This document shows, one piece after another, positions 6,206-59,012 of a stretch of DNA of 64,000 nt. The notes below the pieces were generated by a model. It was not told where the DNA came from and made no database searches. It saw nothing but the letters and a program-made list of their open reading frames with translations. The first letter of the stretch is position 1, and every line of letters begins with the position of its first letter. Location of the stretch: contig NC_090418.1 in NCBI RefSeq assembly GCF_036365525.1, positions 6,798,304-6,862,303 of the forward strand. The letters run 5' to 3'. The DNA is from Heterodontus francisci. Taxonomy: Eukaryota. The translations under genes and the position numbers were made by a program.

Positions 6206-6281
6206 CTGCAAGGACAGGTATTCCATAGTTCCAAAACTGTCTAACATCAGTGAATGAATAAGACAGCACTTTGTTCCTTAC

Positions 6282-20869: not shown

Positions 20870-20875
20870 TTTATT
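20870..20875 (-). terminator. Candidate polyadenylation signal AATAAA (alternatives: ATTAAA ~21052, AATAAA ~20389)
   Basis: Plus-strand tttatt ~500 nt downstream of the stop codon; the candidates cannot be ranked from sequence alone. Confidence 0.4.
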
Positions 20876-21367
20876 CAGCTCGCAAGGTGCAATTACAGGA
20901 ATGATTCCAAAATGTTTCCCTTGAACAGTCAGAGAATGTCACTCCAGGATTACTCCAAATTCTATTAGATGTGTTTGAATGAATGCAGCTCTGATGGTGT
21001 CTCAGCTAATTACAGTTGGAAGAGATCATCCCAGTTTTTATCTACATATATTTTAATTAATGCACTAATCATAAAGGACAAATCTCCATATAAAGAATGT
21101 TACTTGACGGATAACAATTGCGCTCCAAGGATCTCCAGTCAGAGAACCAGGAAGAAGACCTTTCTCATGAGTGCTGGCATCATTTGTGGTTGTTGTGACC
21201 TTCACCACCAAACAGGCTGGTCCACAGTGGTGAGTTGTGGTGTTCCTGGAGCATCTGTTGTCCTCGGTGCGACGGATCCAACAGTGAAGGAATGTCCCTT
21301 TTTAAGCAGCTACTGATTTCATGCGAAGCAAATTATGAGCAGAAGCAGCAAATACGTCTGAAAGGGA

Positions 21368-21387
21368 TCAAATCCAGGGATAGTATC
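21368..21387 (-). CDS. Terminal coding exon GYYPWI*
   Basis: tttctttcctgattttcag|GATACTATCCCTGGATTTGA; strong acceptor, phase-1 reading repeats GYYP. Confidence 0.85.
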
Positions 21388-24300
21388 CTGAAAATCAGGA
21401 AAGAAATATGAATTCACTTTCTTGTTAGACATCAACTTATGCAACTGAGAAACAAGGATGCAGGTGGATCTGAGACAAATGAAGTGCATTGTAAAAAAAC
21501 GTGAAGTAGGAAAATAACAAAACAGAATTCTAATCTAAACTGAAAGTTCACAACAGGGTGGAGGGTCTAATCGACTTTGGGATGCACATATATCATCCAG
21601 TGATGGATAGAGATCAAAGGACAGATCCAGAGATCTGAGGGTACAGATACACAGGTCCAGTATTCTTCTGTGTCGCAAATCCTGCCATGATTCTTTCAGG
21701 GACGCAGGCAAAGTCCTTCCACATCTCAGAACAGCCAGTGATGGTCTTTTTCTGAGTGATAGTCAAAGCATTTGACAGGGTGCATAGAGAGAAACTATTT
21801 CCTCTGGCTGGGGAGAAGTTCAAAACAAGGAGGAATAACCTTACTATTAGATCCAGACTGTTCAGGGATGGCATTAGGAAGCATTTCTTCACACAAAGGG
21901 TCGCAGAAATCTGGAAACCCGTAAAATGCTGCTGAGGCTTGTGGTTAATTTAAAATTTCAAAACTGATATGGATAGTTTTTTTTTGTGAGGCTAGGGTAT
22001 TAAAGGATCTGTGATGGGTAGATGTTAGCATTCACCCCATGATCTAATTGAATGGTGTAGCAGGCTCAAGGGGCTGAATGACCGCCTGCTGTTCCTGTAT
22101 TTCTATGTCAATATTGCCATGCACTAATATGATCTTGTGTCATATTTACTAACAAGAAGTCGGAAGCTGAAAACTTTTCCAGAAAATCAGATCCCTTTGG
22201 TGGAGATGGGAATCAATAAATCCACTTGCCACCTGGGACTAATACAGATGTAGATCAGATAGCCATTAGTGAAAATTCCCTGTCATTCACATTTCCAATA
22301 CAATCAGTTCAGTAACTGAAACATTCAGTCTTGTACGGATTAGGGATTGGTGTCAATCTTTCCAACATTAAATGGACATTATTTTTAATACTCATTTCAT
22401 TTAAGCTTTTTAATCTTTGCATCCTCTCATATAAATATCTAACCTCTTGCACCAAAAGCAGGAACTGAGATAGTTATTTATCTCTGTTTACACAAATTAT
22501 GGATTAGTTGAAATCTTTACAAATTAAATTAATTTTACCATTCAGACCTGGTTTATTTCAATGCATTATACATTTTCTAGCTTAATCTTTGTTACTAAAT
22601 CATTCATGAACAGTTAAGTTATGAGCTGTGTGACATTCCCCAGTTTGCTATTTACAGCAGCTGTTGAATAGTTAATTGGGGAGTACAGTCCAATCCTGTA
22701 GACCACGGATGCATCACTTTTTAATCCATATGGTTCAGTATCAATTTGGAAAATTTCACATTGTGGTCTGGCCAATGATCACATCTCAGGGCAGGTCAGA
22801 GCTCTGAGCTGCTCAGAAAGTCCTTATTCCAGTTGGTATTTTTGTTTAGGCTATTCCTGAATGTGTCCTGTCCAGCAGGTAGCTGCAGGCTCTTGACCCA
22901 GGTCACAGAATCAAGCAGTTTTATTCTTTGCAAACATCAGACCACATGCAGAATCTCAGTGGTGGTTTTGTTTGGGGACTGTGTCTAGTTTCTCCTCATG
23001 TTACCCCCTGACATTTTTCCCAATTATCTTAAATCTGTGTCCTCTGCTTTCCGATTCTCCTGCCAGCTAAAACAGTTTCTCCTTCCTTGCCAATTAGAAA
23101 TCATTTTAATTCAGAACATCTCGATTAAATCCCCACTTAACATTCTTTCCCCCAAGGAGAACAATCCCAGCTTCTCCAGTCTCTCTCCATCATTGAAGTC
23201 CTTGTTGCTGTCGAAGGATGTTTGGTCAGAAATCTGCTTCTGCTGCAATGATGAACCTGCTCTGTGTTCCCTGGAACATTTTGTCCCTTCATCGCATTGC
23301 CGGTAATTCCAGGGATTTTCCACTGTCCCACAATGTAAGTGCAAATGAAACACTCCCAGTGTAATCACTATCTCAGGGGGAGAGTGGGGAAATTCAGATT
23401 TCCTGGGCAGGAGCTGGAATCAGCCACTGCAGATTTTCAAATAGGACGCCAAATGTCTTGTCGGTGCCAAGGTTTGAGGTTAGGAATTTCGTGCTGTGAA
23501 ATGGTGGGAGACGGTCAGATGAATGCATTCTGTCACTAATATCAACCTGAGGAAGATTGCACCTTTACCAGTTTTGGAACACATAAAAAGCAGCCAATGA
23601 GCAGTGGGATGGTGCATTGAAGGGATTTGGTTTTGGGTATTGTGAACAGTTTCACTCAGAGTGTCTGCAATATTTTTTCCTTGAATTAAAACACGCAAAA
23701 CATCTGCAATAAACTTTCGGAATCAAAGTATTTACCGTGGCTTTTAGTGCTTCTTTTTTCCTTTGGGGAAGAAACAAATTTGAGTTAACATTGCTGAAAA
23801 TCAAGTGGAGATTTACATTTTCAACACATTCAGTTCAGTAACTGAAACATTCAGTATTGCTCCAATTGACGATTGGTGATGGACTTTCCAGCATTAAATG
23901 GACATTATTATTCATATTCATTTCATTTAAGCTTATTCATCTCTGCACACAATCATATAAATATCTTACCTCTTGCACCAAAAGCAGGGTGTGAGATAAT
24001 TATTCATCTCTGGATTCACAATGTAGGTATTGCTTTAAATATTGACAAACTAATTAATTTTAACTTTCAGAAACAATCCATTTCAGCGTATAAGTTTTGC
24101 CTGAATCTTTGTGGACAGTTATGAGTTGTGTGACAATCCCCTGTCCACTATACAGTTATTTGCAAAAACAAAGTTCACTCCTGTATGACAAGGATGCAGC
24201 ACCTTTTAAATACATTTTTTTTCAAATATCAGCTTGAATAAATCTAGATAGCAGTCTGGCCAATGATCACGTCTCAGTGCAAGAAAGAGACCTGAGGTTC

Positions 24301-27300
24301 ATGCGACAGTTGGTTTCTTGTTTCATGCTATTTTTGAATGTGTCCTGTTCAGCAGGAAGCTGAAGGCTTGACCCAGGTCACAGAATCAAGTCATTTTATT
24401 CATTACAATCTTGAGATCTACTGCACAATCTACAATCAATGTACCGCGACCTCTACCACCTAGAAGTGCACGGGCATGTGAGGCGGGTACACTCACAGTG
24501 CTGTTCGGAAGGGAGGTGCAGGATTTGGGCCCAGCAACAGTGAAGGAACGGCGATATAGTTCCAGGTCAGGATGGTGTGTGACTTGGAGGGGAACTTGCA
24601 GGTGGTGGTGTTCCCACGGATTTGCTGCCCTTGTCCTTCTAGTTGGTAAAGGTTGCGGGTTTGGAAGGTGCTGTCTAAGGAGCCTTGGTGCATTGTTGCA
24701 GTGCGTTTTGTAGATGGTACACACTGCTGCCATTGTGTGTCGGTGATGGAGGGAGTGAATGATTGTGGATGGGGTGCCAATCAAGTGGACTTCTTTGTCC
24801 TGGATGGTGTCGAGATCTTGTGTGTTGTTGGAGCTGCAGGCATCCAGCCAAGTGGAGAGTATTCCATCATACTACTGACTTGTGCCTTGTAGATGGTGGA
24901 CAGGCTTTGGGGAGTCAGGAGGTGACATAGTCGCCGCAGGATTCCTAACCTCTGACCTGCTCTTGTAGCCATGGTATTTATATGGCTACTCAAGTTCAGT
25001 TTCGGGTCAATGGTAGCCCCTAGGATGTTGATAGTGGGGGATTCAGCAATTGTAATGACATTGAATGTCAAGGGGAGTTGGTTCCATTCTCTCTTGTTGG
25101 AGATGGTCATTGCCCGGCACTTGTGTGGTGTGAATGTTACTTGCCATTTATCAGCCCAAACCTGGATATTGTCCATTCATATGAAGATCTAAACTCTTGC
25201 ACCAAAAGCAGGGAGTGAAATAGTTTTCATCTCTGTTTGCACAATGTTTAGATTGTTTTACATTTTTATACACAAATTAATTTTACCATTCATAGCTGTT
25301 TTATCTCAATGTACACATTTTCTGGATGAAGTTTTGTGATAAATGCAATGGCGGACAGGTATGAATTGTGTGACATCCCTGTCCGCTACTAAGTGCAACT
25401 GTTAAGCAGTTAATTGGAAAAAAAATGTTCACTCCTGTCTGATACAGATGCTGCAATTTTTAACGCATGTTGGTTCAATGTCAACTTGGATCAATCTACA
25501 TTGTTCTGGACAATGATCACATTTCAGGGCAGGACAGAGACCTGAGTTGCTCAGGTAGTCCTTACTCCAGTTGGTTTGTTTGTTCATGCTATTCCTGAAC
25601 GTGTCATGTTCAGCTGGAAGCTGAAGGCTCTTGACCCAGGTCACAGAATCAAGCCATTTTATTTATTGCAAACTTGATAGATACTGCACAATCTCTGTGG
25701 TGGTTTTCATTGAGGACTGTGTCTCCTTTCTCCTCATGCTCCTATTGATATTTCTGCCAATTATCTTAAACCTGTGTCCTCTGGTTATGGATCTTTTTGC
25801 CAGTAGAAACAATTTCTCCTTCTTTTCAATCAAAAGCTTTCTTAACTCTGAACATGTCAATTACATCTTCCCTGAAAATGGTTTCCTCTAAGGAGGACAA
25901 TCTCAGCTTCTCTAGTCTCTCTGCATCAATGAAGACATTATGCTGAGGGCTGTTGTTTGTCTTTGGGTATTGTGAACAGTATCTCTCAGAGTGTCTGCAT
26001 TATTGTTTCAGGAGATTAAAACACGCAAATTTTGACAATAAATTATCTCAATAAAAAATGTTACCTTTGCCATAAGAGGGGTAACAATCTGTGGGGGATA
26101 AACAGATTTGTGTTAACATTGACTGCTGAAAATCAAGTGGAGATTCACATCTTCAACACAATTTGTTCAGTAACGGAAACATTCAGTATTGCATCATTCA
26201 AACATTCTATGGACATTATCATTAATACTCAATTCCCTTACGTTTTTCATCTCTGCACCCTCTCATATGAATATCTATCCTCTTGCAACAAAAGCAGGAA
26301 GTGAAAACATTATACATCTTTTTATAAAGTATAGTTTGGTTCAAATCCTTACAAATTAAATTAATTTTACCATTCACAGCCGCTTCACTTCAATGCATTA
26401 CATGTTTTCTAGCTTAATCTTTGTGCTAAAAACATTAGTGGACAGTTATGAGTTGTGTGACATTCCCATGTCCGCTATTTAGTGCAGCTGGTAAACTGTT
26501 AATTGAGAAATAAAATCTCCCCTGAATGACACAGATGCAGCAATTTTTAATCCTGTTGTTGAAATATCAAAGTGGATAAATCTACATTGCGTTCTGGCCA
26601 ATGATCATACGACATTTTGGCCAATCATCTTAAATCTGTGTCCTCTGGTACCTGCACTCCTGGCAGTTGAAACAATTTCTCCTTCTTTAGCCAAACAGAA
26701 TCTGTCTTAATTCTGATCATCTCGATTAAATCTCCCCTGAACATTCTTTCCTCTAAGGAGAACAATCCCCGCTTCTCCAGTCTCTCTCCATCACTGAAGT
26801 CCTTGTGCTGAGGACTGTTGCTGTCGAAGGATGTTTGGGCAGAAATCTGCCTCTGCTGCAGTGGTGACCCTGCTCCGTGTTCCCTGGAACATTTGGTCCC
26901 TCCAGCACGTGGCCATGATTCCAGGGATTTTCCACTATGAGACAATATAAGTGTAGCTGAAACACTCCCAGTGTAATCACTATCTGAGGGTGAGAGTGAG
27001 GATATTCAGATTTCCTGGGCGGGAACTGAAATCCGCCACTGCAGCTTTTGAAAGAGGTCGCTAAACTTCTCGTCGGTGACAAGGTTTGATGTTGGGAATT
27101 TCGCGCTGTAGAATGGTGGGAGACGGTCAGATGAAAGCTTTCATCACTAATATTAATCGGTGGAAATGTACATCTTTAGCAGTTTTGCAATTAATGAAAA
27201 ACAGCCAATGAGCAGCGGGATGGCACAGTGAAGGGATTGTTGTGTGGGTATTGTGAACAGTTTCAATCAGAATGTCTGCATTATTTTTCCTGGAGATCAA

Positions 27301-30300
27301 AACGCGTCAAAATTGAGAATAAATTCTCTAAATAAAAATATTTACCGTAGCTGCAATAGTGGTAACAGACTGTGAGGAGAAACAGATTTGTGTTAACATT
27401 GTCTGCTGAGAATCAAGTGGAGATTCACATTTTCAACACAATCGGTTCACTAACAGAAAGATACAGTATCGCTCAGATTAACGATTGGTGTAGATCACTC
27501 AAACATGAAATAGACGTTATTCGTTGAAGCTTATTCATCTCTGCACCCTCTGATAGGACATTCTATCCTCTTGCACCAAAAGGAGGGAGTGAAATAGTTA
27601 ATCATTTCTGTTTACACAAGATATGGTTTTGTTGAAATCTTTACAAATTAAATTAATGATAACTTTCATGCCCGTTTGTTTTCAATGAATTATGAGTTTT
27701 CTAGCTTTATCTTTGTGATAAAAGCATTAGTGGACGGTTAGGTTATGAGCTGTGTGACATTCACCTCGCTGCTATTCAGTGCAGCTGTACAGCTGTTAAT
27801 TGAAAAAATAGTTCACTCCTGCATGACAAGGATACAACACTTTTATTCAATTTGTTCAAATATCAACTTGGAGAAATTTACACAGCAGTCTGAACACTGA
27901 ATACATCTCAGGGCAGGACAGAGACCTGAGCTGCTCAGAAGATCCTTGCTCCAGTTGCTTTGTTTTTTTACGCTATTCCTGAATGTGTCCTGTCCAGCAG
28001 CAAGCTGAAGCTTCTTGACCCAGGTCATAGAATCAATTCAATCTATTCATTGCAATCTTGAGAGCTACTGCACAATCTCAGTGGTGGTTTTCATTGGGTA
28101 CTGGGTCTACTTTGTATTCATGTCCACCCCCTGACATTTATTTGTGAAATATCTTACATCTTGCCTTCTGGTCACCGCCCTTCCTGCCAATGGAAACAAT
28201 TTCTCCTTCTTTACCTAATCAAAAACTGTCTTAATTCTGATCATCTCCATTAAATCTCTCCTGTACATTCTACCCTCTAAGGAGAACAATCCCAGCTTCT
28301 CGAGGCTCTCTCCATCACTGAAATCCTTGTGCTGAGGACTGTTGCTGTGGAAGAATGTTTGAGCAGAAATCCACCTCTGCTGCCGTGGTGACCCTGCTCC
28401 GTGTTCCCTGGAACATTTTGTCCTTCCAGCACATGGCCGGGAATTCCAGGGATTATCCACAGTTCCACAATATAAGTGCAACTGAAACTCCCAGTGTAAT
28501 GACCATCTCAGGGTGCGATTGGGGAAATTCAGATTTTCTGGGCAGGAGCTGAAATTCGCCACTGCAGCTTTTCAAAGTGGATGCTAAACTTCTCATCGGT
28601 GACAAGGTTTGAGGTTGGGAATTTCGTGCTGTGAAATGGTGGGAGACGGTCAGATGAATGCAATCTGTCACTCTTATCAACCAGAGGAAATTTACACCAT
28701 AAACTATTTGGGTTTAGATGAGAAGCAGCCAGTGAGCAGTAGAATGATGCTGTGAAAGGATTTGGGCTTGGGTATTTTGAACTGTATCACTCAGAGTGTC
28801 TGCATTATTGCTTCTGGAGATTAAAACATGCAGAAAACTGACAATAAATTTTCTTGTTGAAAATATTTACCATAGTGTCCATGATTATAATATCCTGTGG
28901 GTAGAAACAGATTTGTGTTAACATTGTCTGCTGCGTTTCGAGTGGAGATTTACATTTTGAACACAATTTGTTCAGTAACTGAAACATTCAGTGTTGCTCG
29001 GATTAGGATTGAAGTCGATCTTTCAAGCATTTAATGTACATTATCATTAATACTGATTTCATTTAAGCTTATTCATCTGTGAACCCTCTCCTATGAATAT
29101 CTAACCTCTTCCACCAAACGCAGGGAGTTAAATAGTTATTCACCTCTGTTTTCACAAAGTATGGTTTTCTTGAACTCCTTACAAAATGAATTTATTTTAC
29201 TATTTGAGCAGGGAAGTTATGCTGGAACTGTATAAATCGTTGGTTAGGCCACAAATTGAGTACTGTGTGCTGTTCTGATCACCTCATTACAGAAAGGATA
29301 TAATTGCACTGGAGCTGTTACAGAGGAGATTAACGAGGATGTTGCCAGGACTGAAAAAATACAGCTGTGAGGAAAGATTGGCGAGGCTGGGGTTGTTCTC
29401 CTTGGAATAGAGAATGCTGAGGGGAGATCTGATTGAAATGTACAAAATTATGCGGGGGCCTGGATAGAATGGAGGTGAAGGGCCTATTTACCTTAGCAGA
29501 GATGTCAGTGACTAGGGGACATTGATTTAAAGTGATTGGTCGAACGATTAGAGGGGAGATATGGAAATAAATTTCATGAGAGGGTGGTGGGGGTCTGCAA
29601 CTCACTGCCTCAATGGGTAGTTGAAACAGAAACCCCCAACTCATTCAAATGGAGTCTGGATATGCATCTCAAGGGCCGTAACAAGTGCCGCAATCCGCAG
29701 GGCTACAGACCAAATGCAAGAAGGTGGCATTGGACTTGGAGGATTGTTGTTTGGCCGGCACAGACATGATGGGCCAAGTGGCCGCTTTCTGTGCTGTAAC
29801 CTTTCAATGATTCTATGATTTTATTGTCCCCACTGCATTTCAATGCACTATTATTTTCGAGGTCACTCTTTGTGATAAATACTTTGTTGGACCGTTATGC
29901 GATGAGCTGTGTGACATTCCCTCGTCCGCTATTTAATGAAGCTTTAGACAGGTCACTGCGGATAAAGCTCACTGCTGCGTGACAAGGGTGCCTGAGCTGA
30001 AAACCGATACTACAGTTTCTGAAAGAGGACGCAGAACTTCTCGTCGGTGACAAGGTTTGAAGTTGGGAATTTCGTGCTGTGAAATGGTGGGAGACGGTCA
30101 GATGAATGCATTCTGTCATTAATATCAACCAGAGGAAAATTACACCTTGGACTGTTTTGGTTCCTTCCGATGAAGGGTCACTGACCCGAAACGTTAACTC
30201 TGCTTCTCTTTCCACAGATGCTGCCAGACATGCTGAGTGGTTCCAGCATTTCTTGTTTTTAATTCATTTCAGTAACTGGAACATTCAGTATTGCACGAAT

Positions 30301-42300: not shown

Positions 42301-45300
42301 CGCTAAACTTCTCGTCGGTGATAAGGATTGAGGTTGGGAATTTCACGCTGTGAAATGGTGGGAGACGGTCAGATCAATGTCACTAATATCAAACAGTGGA
42401 AATTTACACCATGAGCTGTTTTGGTGCAGATGAGAGGCAGCCAATGAGCAGCGAGATGGTGCAGTGAAGGTGTTGGTGTGTGGGTAATGTGAACAGTATC
42501 TCTCAGACTGTCGGCATTATTGTTTCTGGAGATTAAAACACCCCAAAAAATTGACAATACATTCTCAGAGTAAACATATTTACCATGGTCTGGATGAGGA
42601 TAATATCCTGTGTGGAGAAACAGATTTGTGTTAACATTGTCTGCTGAGATTCAAGTGGAGATTAACATTTTGTTCACAAACAGTTCAGCAACTGAAACAT
42701 TCAGTATTGCACGGATTAGGGATTGAAGTGGATCTTTCAAACATTACAGGACATTATCACTGACACTGATATCATTTAAGCTTATTCATTTCTGCTCTAC
42801 TATGAATATCTAACATCCTGCACACAACGCAGGGATTCAACTCGTTGTTCCTCTCTGTTTTAAAAAAGCGCCTTTTTTTGAAATCTTTGGAAACAAAATT
42901 AATTTTGCTGTTCGCACTTTCTTTTTGCTGATGTTTATACCTTTACTCGCTTAATTATTGTGATAATAATATTCGTGGACAATTTAGTTCTGAGCTGTGT
43001 GACATTCCCTGGTTGTGACTTAATGAAGCTGTTAAACAGTTAATTGCAAAATGAAGTTCACTGCTGTGTGACAAGGATGCAACACATTTAATCCATTTTT
43101 TTTTTCAAATATCAACTTGGATAAATCTACACTGGGGTGTGGCCAATGATCACATCTCAGGGCAGAACAGAGACGTGAGCTGCTCAGAAAGTCCTTGCTC
43201 CAATCAGTTTGTTTGTTCATGCAGATGAATGCATTCTCTCACTAATATCAAGCAACAGAAATTTACACCTTTAACCATTTTGGAACACGGAAGAAGCACC
43301 GGGATAATGCAGTGATTCGGATTTGGGTTTTGAATTGTGAACAGTTTGGCCCTACATTACTGTTTCTGGTGATTTAAACATGCAACAATCGGATAATAAA
43401 TTCACGTAATAAAAAATATTTACCACCGTATTTCGTACCTTTTTCCCGTGGTGGTGCGAGGAGGCGTGGAAACAGATTTGTGTTAAGATTGCAGAGAATC
43501 AAGTGAAGATTCATATTTCAACACAATCAGTTCAGTAATTGTAACATTCAGTATTGCTCGGATTAGAAATTGGTGTGGAAATTTCAAACATTAGCTTGAC
43601 ATTCCCATTCATACTGATTTCATTTAAGATTGTTCATCTCTGCACCCTCTCATACAAATGTCTAACCTCTTGCACCAAAAGCAGGGAGTAAAATAGTTGT
43701 TCATCTCTGTTTTTCCAAAGTATGGATTGGTTCAAATTTTTATGAGCTATTTAATTTTATCATTCACAGCGGCTTGATTTCAACCTATAAGTTTTCTGCC
43801 TGAATCTTTGTGATAAATGCATTACTCGACAGTTATAACGTTCTCCTCTCCACTACTTAATGCAGCGGTTAAACATTTCAGTGGAAAAAAACATGTTCAC
43901 TTCAACATGATAAAGATACAGCACTTTTTCATCAATGTTGAAATATGAATTTGGATAAATCTACACTGGGGTCTACCCAATGATCATATCTCAGGACAGG
44001 ACAGAGACCTGAGCTGCTCTGGAAGTCTTTGCTCCAATCGATTTGTTTGTTCTTGCTGTTCCTGAATGTGTCTTGTCCAGCAGGAAGATGAAAGCCTCTC
44101 GACAAATGTCACAGAATCAAGTCATTTTATTCATTGTGATCTTGAGAGCTACTGCGCAGTCTCAGTGGTGGTTTTCATTGGGGACTGTGTCTAATTTCTA
44201 TTCATGTTGCCCCCGATATCTTTGCGAAATATCTTACATTTCTGTTCTCTGGTTACTGACCCTCCTGCCAGTGGAAACAATTTCTCCTTCTTTACCCAAT
44301 CAAAAACTGTCTTAATTCTGAACATCGGGATTAAATCTCCCCTGAACATTCTTTTCTCTAAGGAGAACAATCCCCGCTTCTCCTGTCTCCTCCATCACTG
44401 AAGTCCTTGTGCTGAGGACTGTTGCAGTTGAAGGATGTTTGGTCAGAAATCCGCCTCTGCTGCAGTGGTGATCCTGCTCCGTGTTTCCTATAACATTTTG
44501 CCACTCGAGCACATGGCCAGGATTCCAGGGTTTTTCCACTGCCCCAGAATTTGAGGGAAACCGGAACACTCCCAGTGTTATCACCGTCTCAGCGTGAGAG
44601 TGGGGCAAATCAGATTTCCTGGAGAGGAGCTGAAATCCGTCTCTGCAGCTTTTGATAGAGGACGCTAAACTTCTCGTCGGTGATAAGGATTGAGGTTGGG
44701 AATTTCACGCTGTGAAATGGTGGGAGACGGTCAGATCAATGTCACTAATATCAAACAGTGGAAATTTACACCATGAGCTGTTTTGGTGCAGATGAGAGGC
44801 AGCCAATGAGCAGCGAGATGGTGCAGTGAAGGTGTTGGTGTGTGGGTAATGTGAACAGTATCTCTCAGACTGTCGGCATTATTGTTTCTGGAGATTAAAA
44901 CACCCCAAAAAATTGACAATACATTCTCAGAGTAAACATATTTACCATGGTCTGGATGAGGATAATATCCTGTGTGGAGAAACAGATTTGTGTTAACATT
45001 GTCTGTTGAGATTCAAGTGGAGATTAACATTTTGTTCACAAACAGTTCAGCAACTGAAACATTCAGTATTGCACGGATTAGGGATTGAAGTGGATCTTTC
45101 AAACATTACAGGACATTATCACTGACACTGATATCATTTAAGCTTATTCATTTCTGCTCTACTATGAATATCTAACATCTTGCACACAACGCAGGGATTC
45201 AACTCGTTGTTCCTCTCTGTTTTAAAAAAGCGCCTTTTTTTGAAATCTTTGGAAACAAAATTAATTTTGCTGTTCGCACTTTCTTTTTGCTGATGTTTAT

Positions 45301-48300
45301 ACCTTTACTCGCTTAATTATTGTGATAATAATATTCGTGGACAATTTAGTTCTGAGCTGTGTGACATTCCCTGGTTGTGACTTAATGAAGCTGTTAAACA
45401 GTTAATTGCAAAATGAAGTTCACTGCTGTGTGACAAGGATGCAACACATTTAATCCATTTTTTTTTTCAAATATCAACTTGGATAAATCTACACTGGGGT
45501 GTGGCCAATGATCACATCTCAGGGCAGAACAGAGACGTGAGCTGCTCAGAAAGTCCTTGCTCCAATCAGTTTGTTTGTTCATGCAGATGAATGCATTCTC
45601 TCACTAATATCAAGCAACAGAAATTTACACCTTTAACCATTTTGGAACACGGAAGAAGCACCGGGATAATGCAGTGATTCGGATTTGGGTTTTGAATTGT
45701 GAACAGTTTGGCCCTACATTACTGTTTCTGGTGATTTAAACATGCAACAATCGGATAATAAATTCACGTAATAAAAAATATTTACCACCGTATTTCGTAC
45801 CTTTTTCCCGTGGTGGTGCGAGGAGGCGTGGAAACAGATTTGTGTTAAGATTGCAGAGAATCAAGTGAAGATTCATATTTCAACACAATCAGTTCAGTAA
45901 TTGTAACATTCAGTATTGCTCGGATTAGAAATTGGTGTGGAAATTTCAAACATTAGCTTGACATTCCCATTCATACTGATTTCATTTAAGATTGTTCATC
46001 TCTGCACCCTCTCATACAAATGTCTAACCTCTTGCACCAAAAGCAGGGAGTAAAATAGTTGTTCATCTCTGTTTTTCCAAAGTATGGATTGGTTCAAATT
46101 TTTATGAGCTATTTAATTTTATCATTCACAGCGGCTTGATTTCAACCTATAAGTTTTCTGCCTGAATCTTTGTGATAAATGCATTACTCGACAGTTATAA
46201 CGTTCTCCTCTCCACTACTTAATGCAGCGGTTAAACATTTCAGTGGAAAAAAACATGTTCACTTCAACATGATAAAGATACAGCACTTTTTCATCAATGT
46301 TGAAATATGAATTTGGATAAATCTACACTGGGGTCTACCCAATGATCATATCTCAGGACAGGACAGAGACCTGAGCTGCTCTGGAAGTCTTTGCTCCAAT
46401 CGATTTGTTTGTTCTTGCTGTTCCTGAATGTGTCTTGTCCAGCAGGAAGATGAAAGCCTCTCGACAAATGTCACAGAATCAAGTCATTTTATTCATTGTG
46501 ATCTTGAGAGCTACTGCGCAGTCTCAGTGGTGGTTTTCATTGGGGACTGTGTCTAATTTCTATTCATGTTGCCCCCGATATCTTTGCGAAATATCTTACA
46601 TTTCTGTTCTCTGGTTACTGACCCTCCTGCCAGTGGAAACAATTTCTCCTTCTTTACCCAATCAAAAACTGTCTTAATTCTGAACATCGGGATTAAATCT
46701 CCCCTGAACATTCTTTTCTCTAAGGAGAACAATCCCAGCTTCTCCTGTCTCCTCCATCACTGAAGTCCTTGTGCTGAGGACTGTTGCAGTTGAAGGATGT
46801 TTGGTCAGAAATCCGCCTCTGCTGCAGTGGTGATCCTGCTCCGTGTTTCCTATAACATTTTGCCACTCGAGCACATGGCCAGGATTCCAGGGTTTTTCCA
46901 CTGCCCCAGAATTTGAGGGAAACCGGAACACTCCCAGTGTTATCACCGTCTCAGCGTGAGAGTGGGGCAAATCAGATTTCCTGGAGAGGAGCTGAAATCC
47001 GTCTCTGCAGCTTTTGATAGAGGACGCTAAACTTCTCGTCGTTGATAAGGATTGAGGTTGGGAATTTCACGCTGTGAAATGGTGGGAGACGGACAGATGA
47101 ATGTCACTAAGATCAAACAGAGGAAATTTACACCATGAGCTGTTTTGGTGCAGATGAGAAGCAGCCAATGAGCAGCGAGATGGTGCAGTGAAGGTGTTGG
47201 TGTGTGGGTAATGTGATCAGTATCTCTCAGACTGTCGGCATTATACCTATACTCGCTTTATTGTTGTGATAAAAATGTTAGTGGACAATTAAGTTCTGAG
47301 CTGTGTGACATTCCCCTGGCTGTGACTTAATGAAGCTGTGAAACAGTTAATTGCAAAATGAAGTTCACTGCTAGAACATAGAACATAGAACATAGAACAG
47401 TACAGCACAGTACAGGCCCGTCGGCCCACGATGTTGTGCCGAACCTTTAACCTATTCTAAGATCTAAGTAACTACCTACCCTTCATTCTACTATCATCCA
47501 TGTACCTATCCAAGAGTCTCTTAAATGTCCCTAATGTATCTGCTTCTACTACCATCGCTGGCAGCGCATTCCACGCACCCACCACTCTCTGTGTAAAGAA
47601 CCTACCTCTGACATCTCCCCGAAACCTTCCTCCAATCACCTTAAAATTATGCCCCCTGGTGATAGCCCTTTCCACCCTGGGAAAAAGTCTCTGACTATCC
47701 ACTCTAACTATGCCTCTCATCATCTTGTACCCCTCTATCAAGTCACCTCTCATCCTTCTTCGCTCCAATGAGAAAAGCCCTAGCTCCCTCAATCTTTCTT
47801 CGTAGGACATGCCCTCCAGTCCGGGCAGCATCCTGGTAAATCTCCTCTGCACCCTCTCTAAAGCTTCCACATCCTTCCTATAATGAGGCGACCAGAACTG
47901 AACACAATATTCCAAGTGTGGTCGAACCAGGGCCTTATAGAGCTGCAGCATAACCTCGCGGCTCTTAAACTCAATCCCCCTGTTAATGAAAGCCAACACA
48001 CCATATACCTTCTTAACAACCTTATCAACTTGGGTGGCAACTTTGAGCGATCTATGGACATGGACCCCAAGATCCCTCTGTTCCTCCACAGTACCAAGAA
48101 TGCTGTCTTTAAGCCTGTATTCCGCATTCAAATTCGCCCTTCCAAAATGAATCACTTCACACTTTTCCAGGTTGAACTCCATCTGCCACCTCTCAGCCCA
48201 CTGCTGCGTGACAAGGATGCAACACATTTTAATCCATTTTGTTCAAATATCAACTTGGATAAATCTACACTGGAGTCTGACCAATGATCACATCTCAGAG

Positions 48301-51300
48301 CAGGGCAGAGACCTGAACTGCTCAGAAAGTCCTTGCTCCAATCAGTTTGTTTGTTCATGCAGATGATTGCATTCTCTCACTAATATCACCCAGAGGAAAT
48401 TTGCACCTTTACCCATTTTGGAACACAGGAGAAGCAGCCAATGAGCAGCCGGATAGTGCAGTGAATGGATTTAGGTTTGGGAATTGTGAACAGTTTCACT
48501 CTGCATTACTGTTTCTGGAGCTTTAAACATGCAACAATCGGATAAAAAATTCTCGTCATTAAAATATTTACCACTGTATTTCCTACCCTTTTCCCTTGGG
48601 GTGCGGGGAGGCAGGGAAACAGATTTGTGTTAAGATTGCAGAGAATCAAGTGAAGATTCACATTTTCAACACAATCAGTTCAGCAATTGAAACATTCAGT
48701 ATTGCATGGATTCGGGATTGGTGTGGAAATTTCAATCATTAACTTGACGTTACCATTGATACTGATTTGATTTAAGCTTGTTCATCTCCGCACTCTCTCA
48801 TACAAATGTCTAACCTCTTGCACCAAAAGCAGGGAGTAAAATAGTTATTCATCTCTGTTTTCCCAAAGTATGGATTTTTAAAATTTTTTATGAGCGAATT
48901 AATTTTATCATTCACAGTGGCTTGATTTCACCGTTTAATTTTTCTGCCTGAATCTTTTTGATAAATGCATTAGTGGACTGTTATAACATTGTCCTGACCA
49001 CTACTTAATGCAACTGTTAAACATTTCAGTGGAAACAAAAATGTTTACTCCGACATGATAAAGATACAGCACTTTTTAATCAATGTTGAAATATGAATTT
49101 GGATAAATCTACACTGGGGTCTACCCAATGATCACATCTCAGGACAGGACAGAGACCTGAGCTGCTCTGGAAGACTTTGCTCCAATCGATTTGTTTGTTC
49201 TTGCTATTTCTGAATGTATCCTGTCCAGCAGGAAGATGAAAGCCTTTCAAAAAATGTCATAGATACAAGTCATTTTATTCATTGCATTATTGAGAGCTGC
49301 CATACAATCTCTGTGGTGGTTCTCATTGGGTACTGTGTCTATATTCTATTCATGTTCACCCCCTGACATATTTTATGAAATATCTTAAATTTATGTCCTC
49401 CTGTTACTGGCCCTCCTGCCAGTGGAAACAATTTCTCCTTGTTTACCCAATCAAAAACTGTCTTAATTCTGCACATCGGGATTAAATCTCCCCTTAACTT
49501 TCTTTCCTCAAAGGGGAACAATCCCCACTTCTCTACTCTCTCTCCATCACTGAAGTCCTTGTGTTGAGCACTTGCTGTTGAAGGATGTTTGAGCAGAAAT
49601 CCGCCTCTGCTGCAGTTGTGACCCTGCTCCGTGTTGCCTGGGATTTTGTGTCCCTCCGGCACATGGCCAGGATTCCAGGGATTTTCCGCTGTCCCAGCAT
49701 TGAATTGAAACTGGAACACTCCCAGTGTAATCACTGTGTGATCGGGGAAATTCAGACTTCCTGGGCAGGAGCTGAACACAACCACTGCAGGTTTTGAAAG
49801 TGGTCGCTAAACTTCTCGTCCGGGACCAGCTTGGAGGTTGGGAATTTCGTGCTGTGAAATGGTGGGAGACGGTCAGATGAATGCATTCTGTCACTAATAT
49901 CAATCAGGAAATTGAGACATTTAACTGTTTTAGTTCAGATGAGGAGCAGCCAATGAGCAGCGGGATGGTGCAGTGTGGGGATTGGTGTGTGGGTATTGGG
50001 AACAGTATCTATCAGAGTGTCTGCATTATTGCTTTTGGAGATTAAAACACGCAAAATATTGACAATAAGTTCTCAGACTAATAATATTTACCATGGCCTC
50101 CAGGAAGATAATCTCCTGTGTGGAAAAACAAATTTGTGTTAACACTGTCTGCTGAGATTCAAGTGGAGATTCACATTTTGAACACAATCAGTTCAGTAAT
50201 TGAAACATTCAGTCTTGCACTGATCAGGAATTGAAGTCGATCTTTCAAACATGAAATGGACATTTTCATTAATACTGATTTCGTTTAAGATTATTCATCT
50301 GTGCACCCTCTCCTACGAACATCTAACCTCTTGCACCAAACTCAGGGACTCAACTAGTTGTTCATCTCTGTTTACACAAAGTGCTTTTAAAAAAAATCTT
50401 TACAAACTGAATCTATTTTACTTATGGCACCCTCTTTATGCCAATGTTTATACCTTTACTCGCTTAATTAATGTGATAAAAATGTTAGTGGACAATTAAG
50501 TTCTGAGCTGTGTGACATTCCACTGGCCGCGACTTAATGAAGCTCTTAAACAGTTAATTGCAGAATAAAGTTCACTGCTGTGTGACAAGGATGCAACACA
50601 TTTTAATCCATTTTGTTCAAATATCAACTTGGATAAATCTAACACTGGGGTCTGACAATGATCACATCTCAGGGCAGGGCAGAGACCTGAGCTGCTCAGA
50701 AAGTCCTTGCTCCAATCAGTTTGTTTGTTCATGCAGATGAATGCATTCTCTCACTAATAACACCCAGAGGAAATTTACACCTTTACACCTGTTTTGGAAC
50801 ACAGGAGAAGCAGCCAATGTGCATCATGATAGTGCAGTGAAGGGATTTGGGTTTGGAATTGTGAACAGTTTGGCTCTGCATTGTTTCTGGAGATTTAAAC
50901 ATGCAACAATCGGACAAAAATATTCTCGTCAGCAAAATATTTACCTTTGTCTTTCTTATCTTTTTTCCCTGTGGCGGGGAAACAGATTTGTGTTAAGATT
51001 GCAGAGAAGCATGTGAAGATTCACATTTTCGACACAAACAGTTCAACAATTAAAACATTCAGTATTGCGCAGATTAGAAATTGGTGTGGAAGTTTCAAAC
51101 ATTAACTTGACATGACCATTCATACTGATTTCATTTCAGCTTGATCATCTCCGCACTCTCTCATACAAGTGTCTAACCTCTTGCACCAAAAGCAGGGATT
51201 AAAATAGTTATTCATTTCTGTTTTCCCAAAGTATGGATTGGTTAAAATTTTATGAGCTAATTCATTTTACCATTCACAGCGGCTTGATTTCAACAGATAA

Positions 51301-53540
51301 ATCTTCTGCCTGAATCTTTGTGATAAATGCCTTACTGGACAGTTGTAAATTTCCCTTGTCCACTACTTAATGCAACTGTTAAACATGTCAGTGGAAAAAT
51401 CAAGTTCATTCCAGTATTGTAAAGACGCAGCACATTTTAATCAATGTTGAAAGATCATCTCAGATAAATCCACATTGCGATCTGGCCAATGATCACATCT
51501 CAGGACAGGTCAGAGACCTGAACTGCTCAGAAAGTCTCTGCTCCAATGAGCAGCGGGATGGTACAGTGAAGGGATTTGGGTTTGGTAATTCTGAACAGTT
51601 TCACTCATAGTCTACAATTTTGTCTTCGCGAGATTAAACATGCAAAAATTGACAATAAATTCTCAGAATGCAATATTTACCATCGGCAATGGGATCTGTG
51701 GAGAGAAACAGATTTGTGTTAAGATTGCCTGCTGCACAATCTCAGCATTTGTTTTCATTGGGGTGTGTGTCTCCTTTCTATTCACGTTCGCCTCTGTGAC
51801 ATTTTTGTGAATTTTCTGAAATCTGTGCCCTCTAGTTACCGACCCTTCTGACAGTGGAAACAGCGGGTGCCCTCCCTGTGTTATCGAATCACAAGCTGAT
51901 TGACCAGAGTTTGGGATTTCTTGAGCAGGATTGGAAATGAGCTGTTGTTGCTTTTCGTAGAGTCAAGAGGTGGGCGGCACAGTGGCGCAGTGGTTAGCAC
52001 CGCAGCCTCACAGCTCCAGGGACCCGGGTTTGATTCTGGGTACTGCCTGTGTGGAGTTTGCAAGTTCTCCCTGTGTCTGCGTGGGTTTTCTCCGGGTGCT
52101 CCGGTTTCCTCCCACATGCCAAAGACTTGCAGGTTGATAGGTTAATTGGCCATTATAAATTGCCCCTAGTATAGGTAGGTGGTAGGGAACTATATAGGGA
52201 CAGGTGGGGATGTGATAGGAATATGGGATTAGTGTAGGATTAGTATAAATGGGTGGTTGATGGTCGGCACAGACTCGGTGGGCCGAAGGGCCTGTTTCAG
52301 TGCTGTATCTCTAAACTAATCTGGATTGGATCCTCAATTCTTCACTGTATTTAACAATGACTTATGGGACAGCAAGCCACATTTCCAAATTAGGGGGCAT
52401 TGCAAGCAGTGTAGATGGAAGAGTAAAATTACAAAGAGCTATTGTTACATTAAATGATGAAATGAAACAGTAACAAATGGGTTTCAATGTAGACAGATGT
52501 GAGGTTAACCATATGGGCTTTAAAAGCATAGAACAGGAAAGTTTCTATATGATGAAAATGATAGAAACAGTGAATGTCCAAAGATACTTGGGAGCCCAGG
52601 GACACAGATCATTAAAATGTCCTGAACAACGACGGAAAATAATCAAATAGGCAATGGACTACTGGCCTTTATATGGAGAAAATGAAAATACAAGTGGATT
52701 GAAGTCATGCTTCAGCTATACACAGCCCTGATTAGACCACACCTGGAGTTACTGTGAGCAGTTCTGGGCAACACACCTTAGCAAGGATATATTGGCTTGG
52801 AGGGAGTGCAGTGTAGATTTACCAGAATGATGCTTACATTCAAGGGTTAAATTACAAGGAGCAATTACACACACTAGGGCTGTATTCCCTGGAATTTAGA
52901 AGGTTAAGGGGTTAATTGATTGAAGTTTTCAGCAATTAAAGGGAAAATATAGGGTAGGTAGTGGGAAATTATTTCCGCTGGTGAAGGAGTTCAGGACTCG
53001 AGGGAACTGTTCAAAACTTAGAGCCAGATCCTGCAGGAGTGAAATTAGGAAACATTTCTTCATACACAGGCTGGTAGAAGTTTGGAACTCTCTTCTGCAA
53101 ATTCCAATTAATGCCAAATGAATTGTTAATTTTAAAACTGACATTGTTTTTTTTTCACAAGTCTTGAGGGATATGGGGCAAAGGCAGGTATATGGAGTGA
53201 GTCGCAGATCAGTTATGATCACATTGAATGGCAGAACAGGATCCAAGGGGCTGAATGGCCTCCTCCTGTTCCTATGTTGCTACTGGAATCTCGGTGCTCC
53301 ACCCAGAGGACACAGTCTCAGTCCATGATGTACACCGTACACACAGAGCTCTGTCTAGAGGCCGTGAGCTCTGTCTTGATCTACACTGGACACACAGAGC
53401 TCTGTCCAGAGGCTGCAAGGACAGGTATTCCATAGTTCCAAAACTGTCTAACATCAGTGAATGAATAAGACAGCACTTTGTTCCTTACCTGCCATGACCC
53501 CTGCAATCAGGACGAATAGAAGGAGACACAGGTATTTCAT
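21368..53540 (-). CDS. Complete micro-exon gene (copy B), 18 canonical coding exons, predicted 148-aa secreted Tyr/Gly/Lys/His/Asp-rich repeat protein: MKYLCLLLFVLIAGVMA-DPIAD-GKKDKKDK-GDYLPGGH-GYYPHPDH-GYYPHPDH-GKKYTKYD-GYYPHPDH-GKKDGKYD-GYYPYGDH-GKKYPKYD-GYYPHGGD-GKKYTKYD-GYYPHGDD-GYYNHGHY-VCYHYCSY-DCYPSYGK-GYYPWI*
   Basis: Exons of 52+15+(15x24)+20 = 447 nt join into one open frame through GT-AG phase-1 introns. TATA box, good start context and hydrophobic signal peptide at the 5' end. The terminal exon lies outside the repeat units and independently repeats the GYYP motif using synonymous codons (TAC, CCC). Confidence 0.85.
21450..22110 (+). mobile_element. Degraded CR1 fragments in the last intron
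   Basis: gagaaactatttcctctgg...aggaagcatttcttcacacaaaggg; tail ggggctgaatg...ctgttcctgt. Confidence 0.7.
23736..23760 (-). other. Atypical 25-nt exon: GKKKH* if entered in phase 1, EKRSTKSH(G) if entered in phase 0
   Basis: ttccccaaag|GAAAAAAGAAGCACTAAAAGCCACG|gtaaat; one base longer than the 24-nt norm, with the extra base in an A6 run. Confidence 0.45.
24440..25175 (-). mobile_element. CR1-group LINE fragment (different subfamily), frameshifted
   Basis: WADKWQVTFTPHKC...AGQRLGILRR...IYKAQVSSMMEYSP. Confidence 0.85.
26065..26088 (-). CDS. Micro-exon DCYPSYGK
   Basis: cccacag|ATTGTTACCCCTCTTATGGCAAAG|gtaaca. Confidence 0.75.
27346..27369 (-). CDS. Micro-exon VCYHYCSY
   Basis: ctcacag|TCTGTTACCACTATTGCAGCTACG|gtaaat. 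Confidence 0.75.
28871..28894 (-). CDS. Micro-exon GYYNHGHY
   Basis: ccacag|GATATTATAATCATGGACACTATG|gtaaat. Confidence 0.8.
29203..29820 (+). mobile_element. CR1 3' fragment
   Basis: ELYKSLVRPQIEYCV...LARLGLFSLE.RMLRGDLIEMYKIM remnant; tgattcta tail. Confidence 0.85.
30165..30262 (+). mobile_element. Short Penelope-like terminal fragment replacing part of a repeat unit
   Basis: gatgaagggtcactgacccgaaacgttaactctg... matches ~32434-32524. Confidence 0.75.
30702..32527 (+). mobile_element. Penelope-like retroelement, degraded (RT + GIY-YIG)
   Basis: DVQSLYTSIPH, GVAMGTRMGPSYACLF, YIDD; CSQCSLLYIGETK...RFAEHLRS...VACHFN; TTGGATAAA on both flanks (30693-30701, 32528-32536). Confidence 0.9.
33533..33556 (-). 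CDS. Micro-exon GYYPHGDD
   Basis: cag|GATATTATCCTCATGGAGACGATG|gtaaat. Confidence 0.8.
34388..34411 (-). CDS. Micro-exon GKKYTKYD
   Basis: cag|GGAAAAAATATACAAAATACGATG|gtaaat. Confidence 0.8.
35488..35511 (-). CDS. Micro-exon GYYPHGGD
   Basis: cag|GATATTATCCTCATGGAGGCGATG|gtaaat. Confidence 0.8.
36338..36361 (-). CDS. Micro-exon GKKYPKYD
   Basis: cag|GGAAAAAATATCCAAAATACGATG|gtaaat. Confidence 0.8.
37850..37873 (-). CDS. Micro-exon GYYPYGDH
   Basis: cag|GATATTATCCTTATGGAGACCATG|gtgaat. Confidence 0.8.
38703..38726 (-). CDS. Micro-exon GKKDGKYD
   Basis: cag|GGAAAAAAGATGGAAAATACGATG|gtaaat. Confidence 0.8.
40216..40239 (-). CDS. Micro-exon GYYPHPDH
   Basis: cag|GATATTATCCTCATCCAGACCATG|gtaaat. 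Confidence 0.8.
41074..41097 (-). CDS. Micro-exon GKKYTKYD
   Basis: cag|GGAAAAAATATACAAAATACGATG|gtaaaa (slightly weaker donor). Confidence 0.75.
42584..42607 (-). CDS. Micro-exon GYYPHPDH
   Basis: cag|GATATTATCCTCATCCAGACCATG|gtaaat. Confidence 0.8.
43424..43447 (-). other. K-type exon with lost acceptor; cryptic 15-nt version 43424-43438
   Basis: Same sequence as 45786-45809, 2362 bp away. Confidence 0.4.
44946..44969 (-). CDS. Micro-exon GYYPHPDH
   Basis: cacacag|GATATTATCCTCATCCAGACCATG|gtaaat. Confidence 0.8.
45786..45809 (-). other. K-type exon with lost acceptor (would be GEKGTKYG); cryptic 15-nt version 45786-45800 (GTKYG)
   Basis: Donor intact, acceptor position reads CAC; the next AG is 9 nt inside and frame-preserving. 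Confidence 0.4.
47373..48198 (-). mobile_element. Duplicate of the CR1 insertion
   Basis: Identical 251-aa ORF call at +47259. Confidence 0.95.
48572..48594 (-). other. Atypical 23-nt K-type exon (frame-shifting, GKRVGNTV) or pseudo-exon
   Basis: Donor gtaaat intact, pyrimidine tract lengthened; the first AG after the branch point is ccccaag|, giving 23 nt instead of 24. Confidence 0.45.
50092..50115 (-). CDS. Copy B micro-exon GDYLPGGH
   Basis: cacacag|GAGATTATCTTCCTGGAGGCCATG|gtaaat. Confidence 0.8.
50945..50968 (-). CDS. Copy B micro-exon GKKDKKDK
   Basis: ccacag|GGAAAAAAGATAAGAAAGACAAAG|gtaaat. Confidence 0.8.
51681..51695 (-). CDS. Copy B exon 2, 15 nt, DPIAD
   Basis: cttaac...tctgtttctctccacag|ATCCCATTGCCGATG|gtaaat. 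Confidence 0.8.
51972..52321 (+). mobile_element. HE1/V-SINE, duplicate in copy B intron 1
   Basis: Matches 4713-5062. Confidence 0.9.
53489..53540 (-). CDS. Copy B exon 1: signal peptide MKYLCLLLFVLIAGVMA + 1 nt
   Basis: gcaaccATG (A at -3), basic N-terminus, hydrophobic core, V-x-A cleavage motif, strong donor CAG|GTAAGG, phase 1. Confidence 0.9.
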
Positions 53541-53597
53541 GGTTGCGGTGAGTTGTCTGCCAGTTGGTGTGGTGCATTGTACACTGCGGACTCAGGG

Positions 53598-53605
53598 TTT
53601 ATATA
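53598..53605 (-). promoter_or_regulatory. TATA box (TATATAAA) of copy B
   Basis: Plus-strand tttatata, 57 nt upstream of the ATG at 53540; compatible with a transcription start ~25-30 nt downstream and a short 5'UTR. Confidence 0.75.
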
Positions 53606-54059
53606 CATTTTATGAACAGACCTGCTGAGCAGGTTTTGGCTCTGTTTAGAACAGGTGACGCTCTGATTTAAGCTTGAATCAATCTTTCTGACAAGCATGG
53701 CAAAGGCGATGAAATGTCAGCCAAAAGATAAAGCATTAATTGGATCACCGAGGAGCATGTGCTCATTTTTCTGGCTACCAACCCCGGCCTGTCCAATCTA
53801 TGAGAATCCACGGGCATACTGAAACAAGGCCCCTGTTTTAGGCAGAAAACAACAGAGGGCGAGTTTCTTTGGCTGCGGGTTGGAGGAGGATGGAGGATGT
53901 GGGGTCTCTGCCTTGGCAGTCGTGGAGTTGGGCAGAAGTTTGACAGAAGCTTGTTTACATGTGGGGGCAGTTTATCCACCCAGGGTGTGACGAGGCAGCA
54001 GAACGGATCACCTCCCAAATTCAGCAAATTCAAGAAACAGAGTCTAACGACTGTTATCA

Positions 54060-58300: not shown

Positions 58301-58981
58301 AGTGTTGGCCAGAGTTTAAAGCCCATGAGTTCACAGCATAGGAGGTGGCCAATTTACTGATTGTGCCTTTGCAAGAGTGATCCAGAATTAATCCCACTGC
58401 CCCACACCTTCCCCACAGCCATGTATCCTCCTCGGTTTCAAATATTTATCCCATTTGCCTTTAAAAGATGCACTGCATTTTTTCTGTACACCGTCTGTGA
58501 CAAAGCATTCCACAGGACAACAACCCTCTGCTCACTCTCTCAGTGACAGTTTTGAATTGGAGCCCGAAACCTTTGCTGAAGGATAAGAAATAGCCTTTCA
58601 TTAGCGAAACTCTTTCTAATTTTTAAGGTAAATATTAAACCTCCTCTTAACCTTCGCTGATCCCACGGAAATCACCCCAGTTTCCTAAATCTTTTTGTGT
58701 CATGATTTGGTTCTCGTTAATACAGGTTGTATGGTTAATATTTAATATTTTCACACATGTGTAAACAGTCAGTGAAATCTGCCTATTTTCACGCAGAACG
58801 GTGGAAATATTATCCATAACCACCGGTTGAATTTATATAGTGCCTTTACTGTAATAAAACATTCCTAGCAGCTTTGAAAGAGCTTTATAAAGCAAAATTT
58901 GACACCGAGCCATGCAAGGAGTTGGTAAAACAGGTGACCAAAAACTTGGACAAAGAGGGAGGTTTCAAGGGGCGTTTTGAA

Positions 58982-59012
<31 letters not shown>

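Follow-up and report, generated by a model that had tools for sequence, protein, structure and literature searches.

In schistosomes, the micro-exon genes (MEGs) encode a signal peptide followed by a coding region most of which is carried in 10-20 very short symmetrical exons separated by long introns; their products are disordered and secreted, and the genes show copy expansion and fast amino-acid change, as set out in the available parts of two reports (bioRxiv 10.1101/2023.06.21.545858, PMC4350168). Here we describe a gene of similar layout, gene A, on the minus strand of a 64,000-nucleotide stretch of DNA from Heterodontus francisci (contig NC_090418.1 of assembly GCF_036365525.1; C48:6798304-6862303 of a 6.0-Gb genome), hereafter the window. 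The repeat array of the window most probably represents a single gene belonging to a diversified and apparently undescribed micro-exon family with exons of 15-27 nucleotides (nt). Like the MEGs, gene A joins a signal peptide—a hydrophobic 17-mer that is, by inspection, conserved in paralogs—to 16 symmetrical micro-exons of 15-24 nt, which hold 375 of its 447 coding nt. In contrast, MEGs are described, in the text available, as restricted to flatworms, whereas the present genome carries the S100 and GTF2I families, which are vertebrate markers. In addition, the exons of gene A are copies of a repeat lying in a duplicated intron unit, and its product is a Tyr/Gly repeat polymer. The family shares only its architecture with the schistosome MEGs; it is not a member of them, and no homology is claimed.

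Tropoelastin offers a second parallel in exon design. Its symmetrical phase-1 exons alternate between hydrophobic Gly/Val/Pro/Ala exons and KA/KP cross-link exons, its chain bears a C-terminal Cys, and in mammals its gene, ELN, is neighboured by the GTF2I/LIMK1 block. Gene A likewise has symmetrical phase-1 exons, Lys-bearing modules alternating with others and C-terminal Cys, but it lacks Ala/Val/Gly hydrophobic repeats (1 Ala, 1 Val and 1 Leu in 131 amino acids; grand average of hydropathy -1.7), its exons are much smaller, and it belongs to a multigene cluster. Synteny probes for S100, SPARC and GTF2I gave no match on C48, and the 11 GTF2I matches all (11/11) fall on C30. Gene A is thus not tropoelastin, whether by composition or by the GTF2I marker. 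A first-pass annotation of the window had drawn analogies with MEGs and with tropoelastin; these hold for architecture and go no further, neither the composition nor the synteny of tropoelastin being found here.

Rebuilt from its coordinates, gene A consists of 18 exons that join into 447 nt encoding 148 amino acids, with one stop, at the end. The first, of 52 nt, encodes the signal peptide; sixteen micro-exons follow, one of 15 nt and fifteen of 24 nt, and the terminal exon adds 20 coding nt. All 17 introns are phase 1, with acceptors that are all CAG and donors that are all GT[AG]A, and coding sequence makes up 1.39% of a span of 32,173 nt. The signature of branch point, CAG, 24 nt and GTRA is found 15 times on the minus strand, never on the plus strand, and not once in any of 100 first-order Markov resamples. 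The features of gene A are as follows, in window coordinates.

53598-53605, minus strand: TATA box (TATATAAA), about 60 nt upstream of the ATG; kept in 15/15 exon-1 copies compared, with one substitution in L013/L014
53489-53540, minus strand: coding part of exon 1, encoding a 17-residue signal peptide (by inspection; residues 4-15 have a hydropathy of 3.2) and ending with 1 further nt before the phase-1 donor GTAAGG
51681-51695, minus strand: 15-nt micro-exon (DPIAD)
50945-50968, minus strand: 24-nt micro-exon, Lys type (GKKDKKDK)
50092-50115, minus strand: 24-nt micro-exon (GDYLPGGH)
48572-48594, minus strand: decayed unit of 23 nt with an AAG acceptor; its use would shift the frame
45786-45800, minus strand: decayed unit without its CAG, where use of a cryptic AAG would yield a 15-nt exon in frame
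44946-44969, minus strand: 24-nt micro-exon, Tyr/His type (GYYPHPDH)
43424-43438, minus strand: decayed unit of the kind of 45786-45800, likewise without its CAG and with a cryptic AAG that would yield a 15-nt exon in frame
42584-42607, minus strand: 24-nt micro-exon, Tyr/His type
41074-41097, minus strand: 24-nt micro-exon, Lys type (GKKYTKYD)
40216-40239, minus strand: 24-nt micro-exon, Tyr/His type
38703-38726, minus strand: 24-nt micro-exon, Lys type
37850-37873, minus strand: 24-nt micro-exon, Tyr type, donor GTGAAT
36338-36361, minus strand: 24-nt micro-exon, Lys type
35488-35511, minus strand: 24-nt micro-exon, Tyr/His type
34388-34411, minus strand: 24-nt micro-exon, Lys type
33533-33556, minus strand: 24-nt micro-exon, Tyr/His type
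28871-28894, minus strand: 24-nt micro-exon (GYYNHGHY)
27346-27369, minus strand: 24-nt micro-exon with two Cys (VCYHYCSY)
26065-26088, minus strand: 24-nt micro-exon with one Cys (DCYPSYGK)
23736-23760, minus strand: decayed unit of 25 nt, with an AAG acceptor and an internal stop; common to copies A, B, C and E
21368-21387, minus strand: coding part of the terminal exon (GYYPWI, stop)
20870-21367, minus strand: 3' untranslated region (UTR); candidate poly(A) signals ATTAAA at 21057, AATAGA at 20966 and AATAAA at 20875
22285-51750, minus strand: array of duplicated intron-exon units of about 0.8-2.4 kb, 73-96% alike, each with one splice-site block and one micro-exon, and with mobile-element fragments inserted

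Lys-rich and Tyr/His-rich micro-exons alternate along the gene. The earlier model of 447 nt and 148 amino acids, all in phase 1 and covering about 1.4% of its span, was reproduced exactly, together with its repeat-unit signature and with the TATA box and signal-peptide exon at one end and the GYYPWI-stop exon at the other. Two decayed units must be skipped because, at 23 and 25 nt (48594 and 23760), they would shift the frame.

The exons carry the marks of coding sequence. Both ends could be called in 117 related units; two others lacked a donor, and one window contained none. Among the 117, 102 of the 103 units with a CAG acceptor are a multiple of three in length, in four classes of 15, 18, 21 and 24 nt; among the 14 with an AAG acceptor, ten are not. 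No in-frame stop occurs in the 40 distinct exon sequences that keep the frame, and simulated neutral change of 10-30% would be expected to place a stop in 10-23% of exons. A fifth class, of 27 nt, is found in remote genes with the frame likewise kept, and an open-length pattern search of a 119-kb paralog returned 44/44 units that are multiples of three. Splice-site invariance is partly circular, since the units were located by those motifs, and is not counted as evidence. A further line comes from close pairs of gene-A units, taken along their minimum spanning tree, which differ at 19/189 exon-interior positions (10.1%) against 36/2134 in flanking intron (1.7%; Fisher p=1.7e-8). The exon interiors of recent duplicates thus diverge six times faster than the flanking introns, and therefore the exons do not drift like intron. 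Single-step exon changes comprise 9 non-synonymous and 0 synonymous, a count that is not significant alone. Either amino-acid differences have been selected for or retained, or introns have been homogenised by a process that exons resist.

Evidence of transcription comes from sequencing runs presumed to be RNA by the tool's guess, none being recorded as RNA and the tissue being unrecorded. Five runs matched the 3' UTR of gene A, and four (X1, X2, X3 and X5) were compared over window 20900-34800; exon 1 and ten micro-exons lie upstream of that region. In 4/4 runs the terminal exon is covered by RNA-like contigs, at a word depth of 26-128; three belong to a single sample, the fourth to another organism (about 93% identity). 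Near-zero depth over the introns of the repeat units was treated as uncovered sequence and given no weight. These contigs, lying on window 20946-21348, are those of a paralog, and their best match is L047 (C48:6.37 Mb), which forms the end of P1, a gene of the Ser/Gly type. The X3 contig carries 19 differences from gene A over 20948-21348 and L047 also exactly 19, with mismatches at both flanks; the X1 contig has 7 differences where L047 predicts 14, and a mosaic contig or another allele is possible. The first 202 nt of the X3 contig are unaligned although the upstream intron of L047 is 90% like that of gene A, which, among the pieces listed, fits splicing to upstream exons but is only a hint. 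A poly(A) site at the contig ends (20946-20948) was considered and rejected: L047 differs from gene A at 20947, and a graph branch or clipping explains them. One family member thus appears to be transcribed in two species; splicing, and the expression of gene A, are presumed. The family is very probably a genuinely transcribed and spliced one, and it is rather likely that gene A is spliced much as modelled. The earlier proposal of a functional hidden gene is strongly supported in so far as it concerns a secreted micro-exon gene, given the frame kept in paralogs, the conserved TATA, signal-peptide and donor exons, and the paralog's terminal-exon contigs; that support does not extend to the splicing of gene A itself.

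The same proposal had the array bracketed by unique sequence. The gene's membership in a diversified family of about 19 copies was missed, and the ends of the array prove to be duplicated: window 1-12606 matches 47260-59908 at 98.2% identity, and four exons, the first of the next copy, B, lie within it. A genome search gave 18 exon-1 matches and one more, 12 at C48 6.29-7.16 Mb, 3 on the small contig C721 and 4 at C48 14.7-17.8 Mb. No processed (intronless) copy was found among the 17 terminal-exon matches, all of which lie on C48 or C721. The parts of copy B that fall in the window are:

6282-6333, minus strand: copy B exon 1; the gene runs on left of the window
1313-4436, minus strand: copy B micro-exons 4436-4422, 3709-3686 and 2856-2833, and decayed unit 1335-1313

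One contiguous stretch of 264 kb contains five complete genes of one design (A-E). Sixteen micro-exons are intact in each of copies A, B and C, with Tyr/His and Lys types alternating; copy E has 9, and copy D has 8 intact 21-nt Tyr/Asp exons. TATA box, signal peptide and phase-1 donor are kept in 15/15 exon-1 copies compared. Repeat types encoded by the paralogs include Tyr/His/Lys, Tyr/Asp, Lys-Pro-Tyr and Ser/Gly/Asn. The last type is that of P1 (C48:6294668-6370127, plus strand) and P2 (6390385-6456852, plus strand), whose loci (L009, L010, L046, L047 and L052-L089) lie on the strand opposite to the Tyr-rich cluster; their repeats, of which GDSSENGN is an example, contain SxE motifs. Over the exons that were sampled (38 targeted windows and one earlier locus, with 40/49 candidates scored and some exons missing), P1 and P2 contain 23-25% Ser, have isoelectric points of 4.4-4.9 and hold 3 and 12 SxE motifs, respectively. 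The 119-kb paralog (C48:7014221-7133526, minus strand) comprises no fewer than 44 units, which by hand translation form a run of 29 with DKKPxxDY or related sequence followed by 15 with GYYPYKGY or related sequence; its matched terminal exon begins Gly-Tyr-stop. Remote members, about 8 Mb from the main cluster at C48 14.74-15.14 Mb and 17.78 Mb (L016-L018, L049, L090), have 21-, 24- and 27-nt phase-1 exons that read by hand as APAPDYNP, APAAGNYYG and GIYSPYY. A loose genome pattern for such units gave 73 matches against 42 for a control, and is mostly chance; only 7 rows on C48 were used. One 27-nt unit is inverted at C48:15118459-15118501.

B matches C at 99.2% identity along 27.6 kb, and C721 may represent a haplotig, which leaves the number of copies in the family uncertain. 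On C721 (700000-830000), three exon-1 copies are near-identical to C48 genes, a possible haplotig or false duplication. Genes A-E contain no assembly gap, and one 200-N gap lies at C48:6625680. Orphan terminal exons also occur (C48:6634051), and L041 is a short 6-kb copy with decayed units. About 19 dispersed genome copies of a short sequence resemble a family micro-exon with its splice sites (for example C18:47698719-47698757 and C33:32843156-32843194); this is possibly a mobile element, possibly a chance likeness and conceivably the source of the unit. Duplicated with each gene copy are minisatellites of 47 bp (6854-8016, 54061-55315) and 69 bp (8200-8439, 55499-55738) ahead of exon 1 and, just within the start of intron 1, a repeat of 52 bp (window 6058-6206). 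Intronic open reading frames at window 47472-48242, 213-983, 24386-24871 and 30615-31187 presumably resemble fragments of long interspersed nuclear elements or other retroelements; three of them were scanned against Pfam with no family found, and the scan of 4 window reading frames in all gave 0 families. Rfam likewise found 0 families in the window, and the idea that the repetition is due to a known intronic RNA is therefore rejected.

The family is apparently undescribed. A protein search with the signal-peptide region, including UTR and intron read-through, found nothing at E<=10 among 8000 candidates of 85-2000 amino acids; an exact match to the model would come out at E of about 0.08, so that this result speaks modestly against a near-identical database protein. 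Further signal-peptide-region searches, in which an identical model would score E=22, were underpowered and found nothing. The single match of one search, a repetitive clam protein, was rejected as a spurious sum of 11 weak stretches, at a threshold too strict to see the family. A literature search, with most subscription journals and supplements outside it, gave no description of the family, nor does the available text of PMC8894161, PMC11979771, PMC5038963 and PMC13188829. An 'uncharacterised' annotation may exist, the queries having been the signal-peptide region and not the spliced chain.

The mature chain of gene A, of 131 residues and 15.4 kDa, contains 31 Tyr, 23 Gly, 18 Asp, 18 Lys, 14 Pro, 13 His and 3 Cys, that is 24% Tyr, 18% Gly, 14% Lys, 14% Asp and 10% His, with an isoelectric point of 7.3; an earlier hand count of Tyr, Gly, Lys, Asp and His agrees throughout. 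The three Cys are C-terminal. The Gly or Asp that recurs where repeats start is the junction codon begun by the terminal G of the preceding exon. Each of the duplicated units, about 1 kb long, carries a branch point, CAG, an exon that keeps the frame and ends in G, and GTAA. Since all exons are phase 1 with lengths divisible by three, units can be duplicated, lost or skipped without a break in the frame; repeat number and recipe therefore shift by unequal crossing-over of whole intron-exon units. The chain is predicted to be intrinsically disordered, secreted via its signal peptide and condensed in secretory granules, and it may then harden by Tyr oxidation (3,4-dihydroxyphenylalanine (DOPA)/quinone or dityrosine), with cross-links to Lys, His and Cys. 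The Ser-rich SxE paralogs would perhaps be phosphorylated acidic partners. The likeliest site would be a catechol-tanned extracellular material, the egg capsule first and then fin rays or skin.

Such a scheme has parallels among the DOPA/quinone-tanned proteins of invertebrates. In the parts of a review that were available, DOPA-quinones are described as adding to Lys, His and Cys, polycationic and phosphoserine-rich proteins as co-condensing, and the examples include the mfp-1 decapeptide AKPSYPPTYK, His-rich beak GHGXY repeats, and the phosphoserine-rich Pc-3 beside polycationic glue proteins (PMC9999432). The gene-A family resembles mussel foot proteins, squid beak HBPs and sandcastle-worm Pc proteins in its short Tyr/Gly/Lys/His repeats, its Cys-bearing end and its acidic Ser-rich partner class (PMC9999432, same parts). 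It differs in that the likeness is one of convergent composition only, the family being known from sequence and in a vertebrate host. The hand-read DKKPxxDY and GYYPYKGY blocks of the 119-kb paralog are of the same kind as the glue and beak repeats, and by its predicted repeats it is the most mussel-glue-like member of the family. For the egg capsule, the sources available in part ascribe egg-case colour to catechol oxidation (PMC6219803) and the making of the egg case to the baffle zone of the oviducal gland (PMC8471067); the words 'tyrosine' and 'catechol' are absent from the available text of the latter.

We put at about 0.5 the probability that gene A encodes a secreted disordered protein that is cross-linked through tyrosine/DOPA into a tough matrix, a tanned structural role proposed by analogy. 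The egg capsule, as the specific site, can be put forward only tentatively on the same analogy. It is a doubtful extension that some 15-19 micro-exon genes are the unsequenced source of the shark egg capsule's non-collagen, catechol-tanned proteins. These would form a modular two-component system of Tyr/Lys/His polymers and phosphoserine-rich partners, convergent on mussel and sandcastle-worm glue, with a recipe tuned by one-exon intron-unit duplication.

Several points weigh against a tanned structural role or against the gene model beneath it. The function is assigned from composition by analogy. Skate capsule proteins rich in Gly, Ser, Pro and Tyr and the trematode eggshell protein p48 are parallels that the literature search did not retrieve, and the same is true of Tyr-rich elastoidin. 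The units are duplicates and the copies related, so that the frame counts are not independent trials. Four of the 20 units of gene A are decayed, without a CAG acceptor (48594, 45800, 43438, 23760); at 45800 and 43438 a cryptic AAG would yield an in-frame 15 nt each. Copy D has one 22-nt frameshift exon, copy E (C48:6642888) has lost its stop, L013/L014 have lost the exon-1 donor (changed to AT) and L043/L051 the terminal acceptor (changed to CAA), a pattern of broken copies as in birth-and-death families. At 21090, 21119 and 21120 the terminal-exon depth is, among the rows listed, all from non-gene-A alleles, and no micro-exon junction was seen in the RNA-like contigs among the 15 of 514 joints listed for window 20900-34800. 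Finally, the presence of the Ser/Gly/Asn-type paralog in 4/4 runs argues against the whole family being oviduct-specific and suggests wider expression of part of it.

The SCPP proteins are the nearest alternative model. On this account the family would be a convergent, SCPP-like mineralisation family of disordered Tyr-rich and acidic phosphoproteins steering enameloid, dentine or tessera mineral, with the Ser-rich paralogs phosphorylated by Fam20C. The two are alike in being clustered, fast-evolving, secreted low-complexity proteins with a signal peptide, with Tyr-rich and acidic classes and with SxE sites in some paralogs. According to the part of the report available, elasmobranch Scpp itself joins signal peptide, Tyr-rich and acidic regions and SxE sites (PMC9122587). 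The acidic, Ser-rich composition and SxE motifs of P1 and P2 fit this account, as does the apparent transcription of P1 in all four runs. The gene structure does not: all 17 introns of gene A are phase 1, whereas the first three coding introns of scpp are phase 0, and elasmobranch scpp adjoins sparc-L (PMC9122587, same part). No SPARC domain was found on C48, the 8 SPARC_Ca_bdg matches (of 23 candidates) lying on C1, C9, C12, C40 and C42. Gene A, moreover, has its ATG in the TATA-proximal exon, no SxE motif in its exons and a neutral isoelectric point. By intron phase and locus gene A is not an SCPP, and an SCPP-like role for the family is unlikely.

Alternatively, the family may be real and gene A recently silenced or mis-spliced, its neat frame being inherited from a functional parent. 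Its decayed units, the visibly broken state of several neighbouring copies and the lack of gene-A alleles among the contig differences listed would all be consistent with this. Against it, the TATA box, the ATG, 17/17 splice pairs and the stop are all intact; the decayed units have lost CAG, as expected of skipped exons, and A, B and C each retain 16 intact exons. Silencing of gene A is accordingly judged improbable.

A role in mucosal or skin defence appears quite improbable. It would make these proteins a histatin-like family of His/Lys/Tyr metal-binding peptides, diversified at the host-microbe interface and with exon-skipping variants as in schistosome MEGs. Birth-and-death turnover of copies and a chain rich in His and Lys would suit it, and exons that outpace introns, mostly by amino-acid replacements, are reported for MEGs in the available part of one paper (PMC4350168). 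However, gene A is charge-neutral (18 Lys, 18 Asp), the long block-repeat paralogs of at least 44 units look like structural polymers, and the rate argument is blunted by a 9:0 count that lacks significance alone and by intron gene conversion, which could inflate the exon/intron contrast.

A non-coding satellite or an assembly artefact, whether an exon-like tandem repeat or one locus falsely duplicated, is very improbable and, as to the existence of the gene, largely refuted: the near-identity of B and C and of the C721 copies may mean that copy number is inflated, but the signature is strand-specific and absent from resamples, the frame is kept across subfamilies whose exons share little sequence, diverged copies stand at 71-87% identity, and the window has no Rfam family and genes A-E no assembly gap.

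The finding is of a gene family hidden in satellite-looking DNA, about 1% coding, over at least 0.9 Mb. It gives the micro-exon architecture of schistosomes a counterpart in a vertebrate, and it records clearly how repeat proteins grow through duplication of whole intron-exon units. If the family does contribute to a tanned matrix, its members would be testable candidates for the cross-linked non-collagen parts of shark egg cases or fin rays, and would provide new templates for catechol-based materials.

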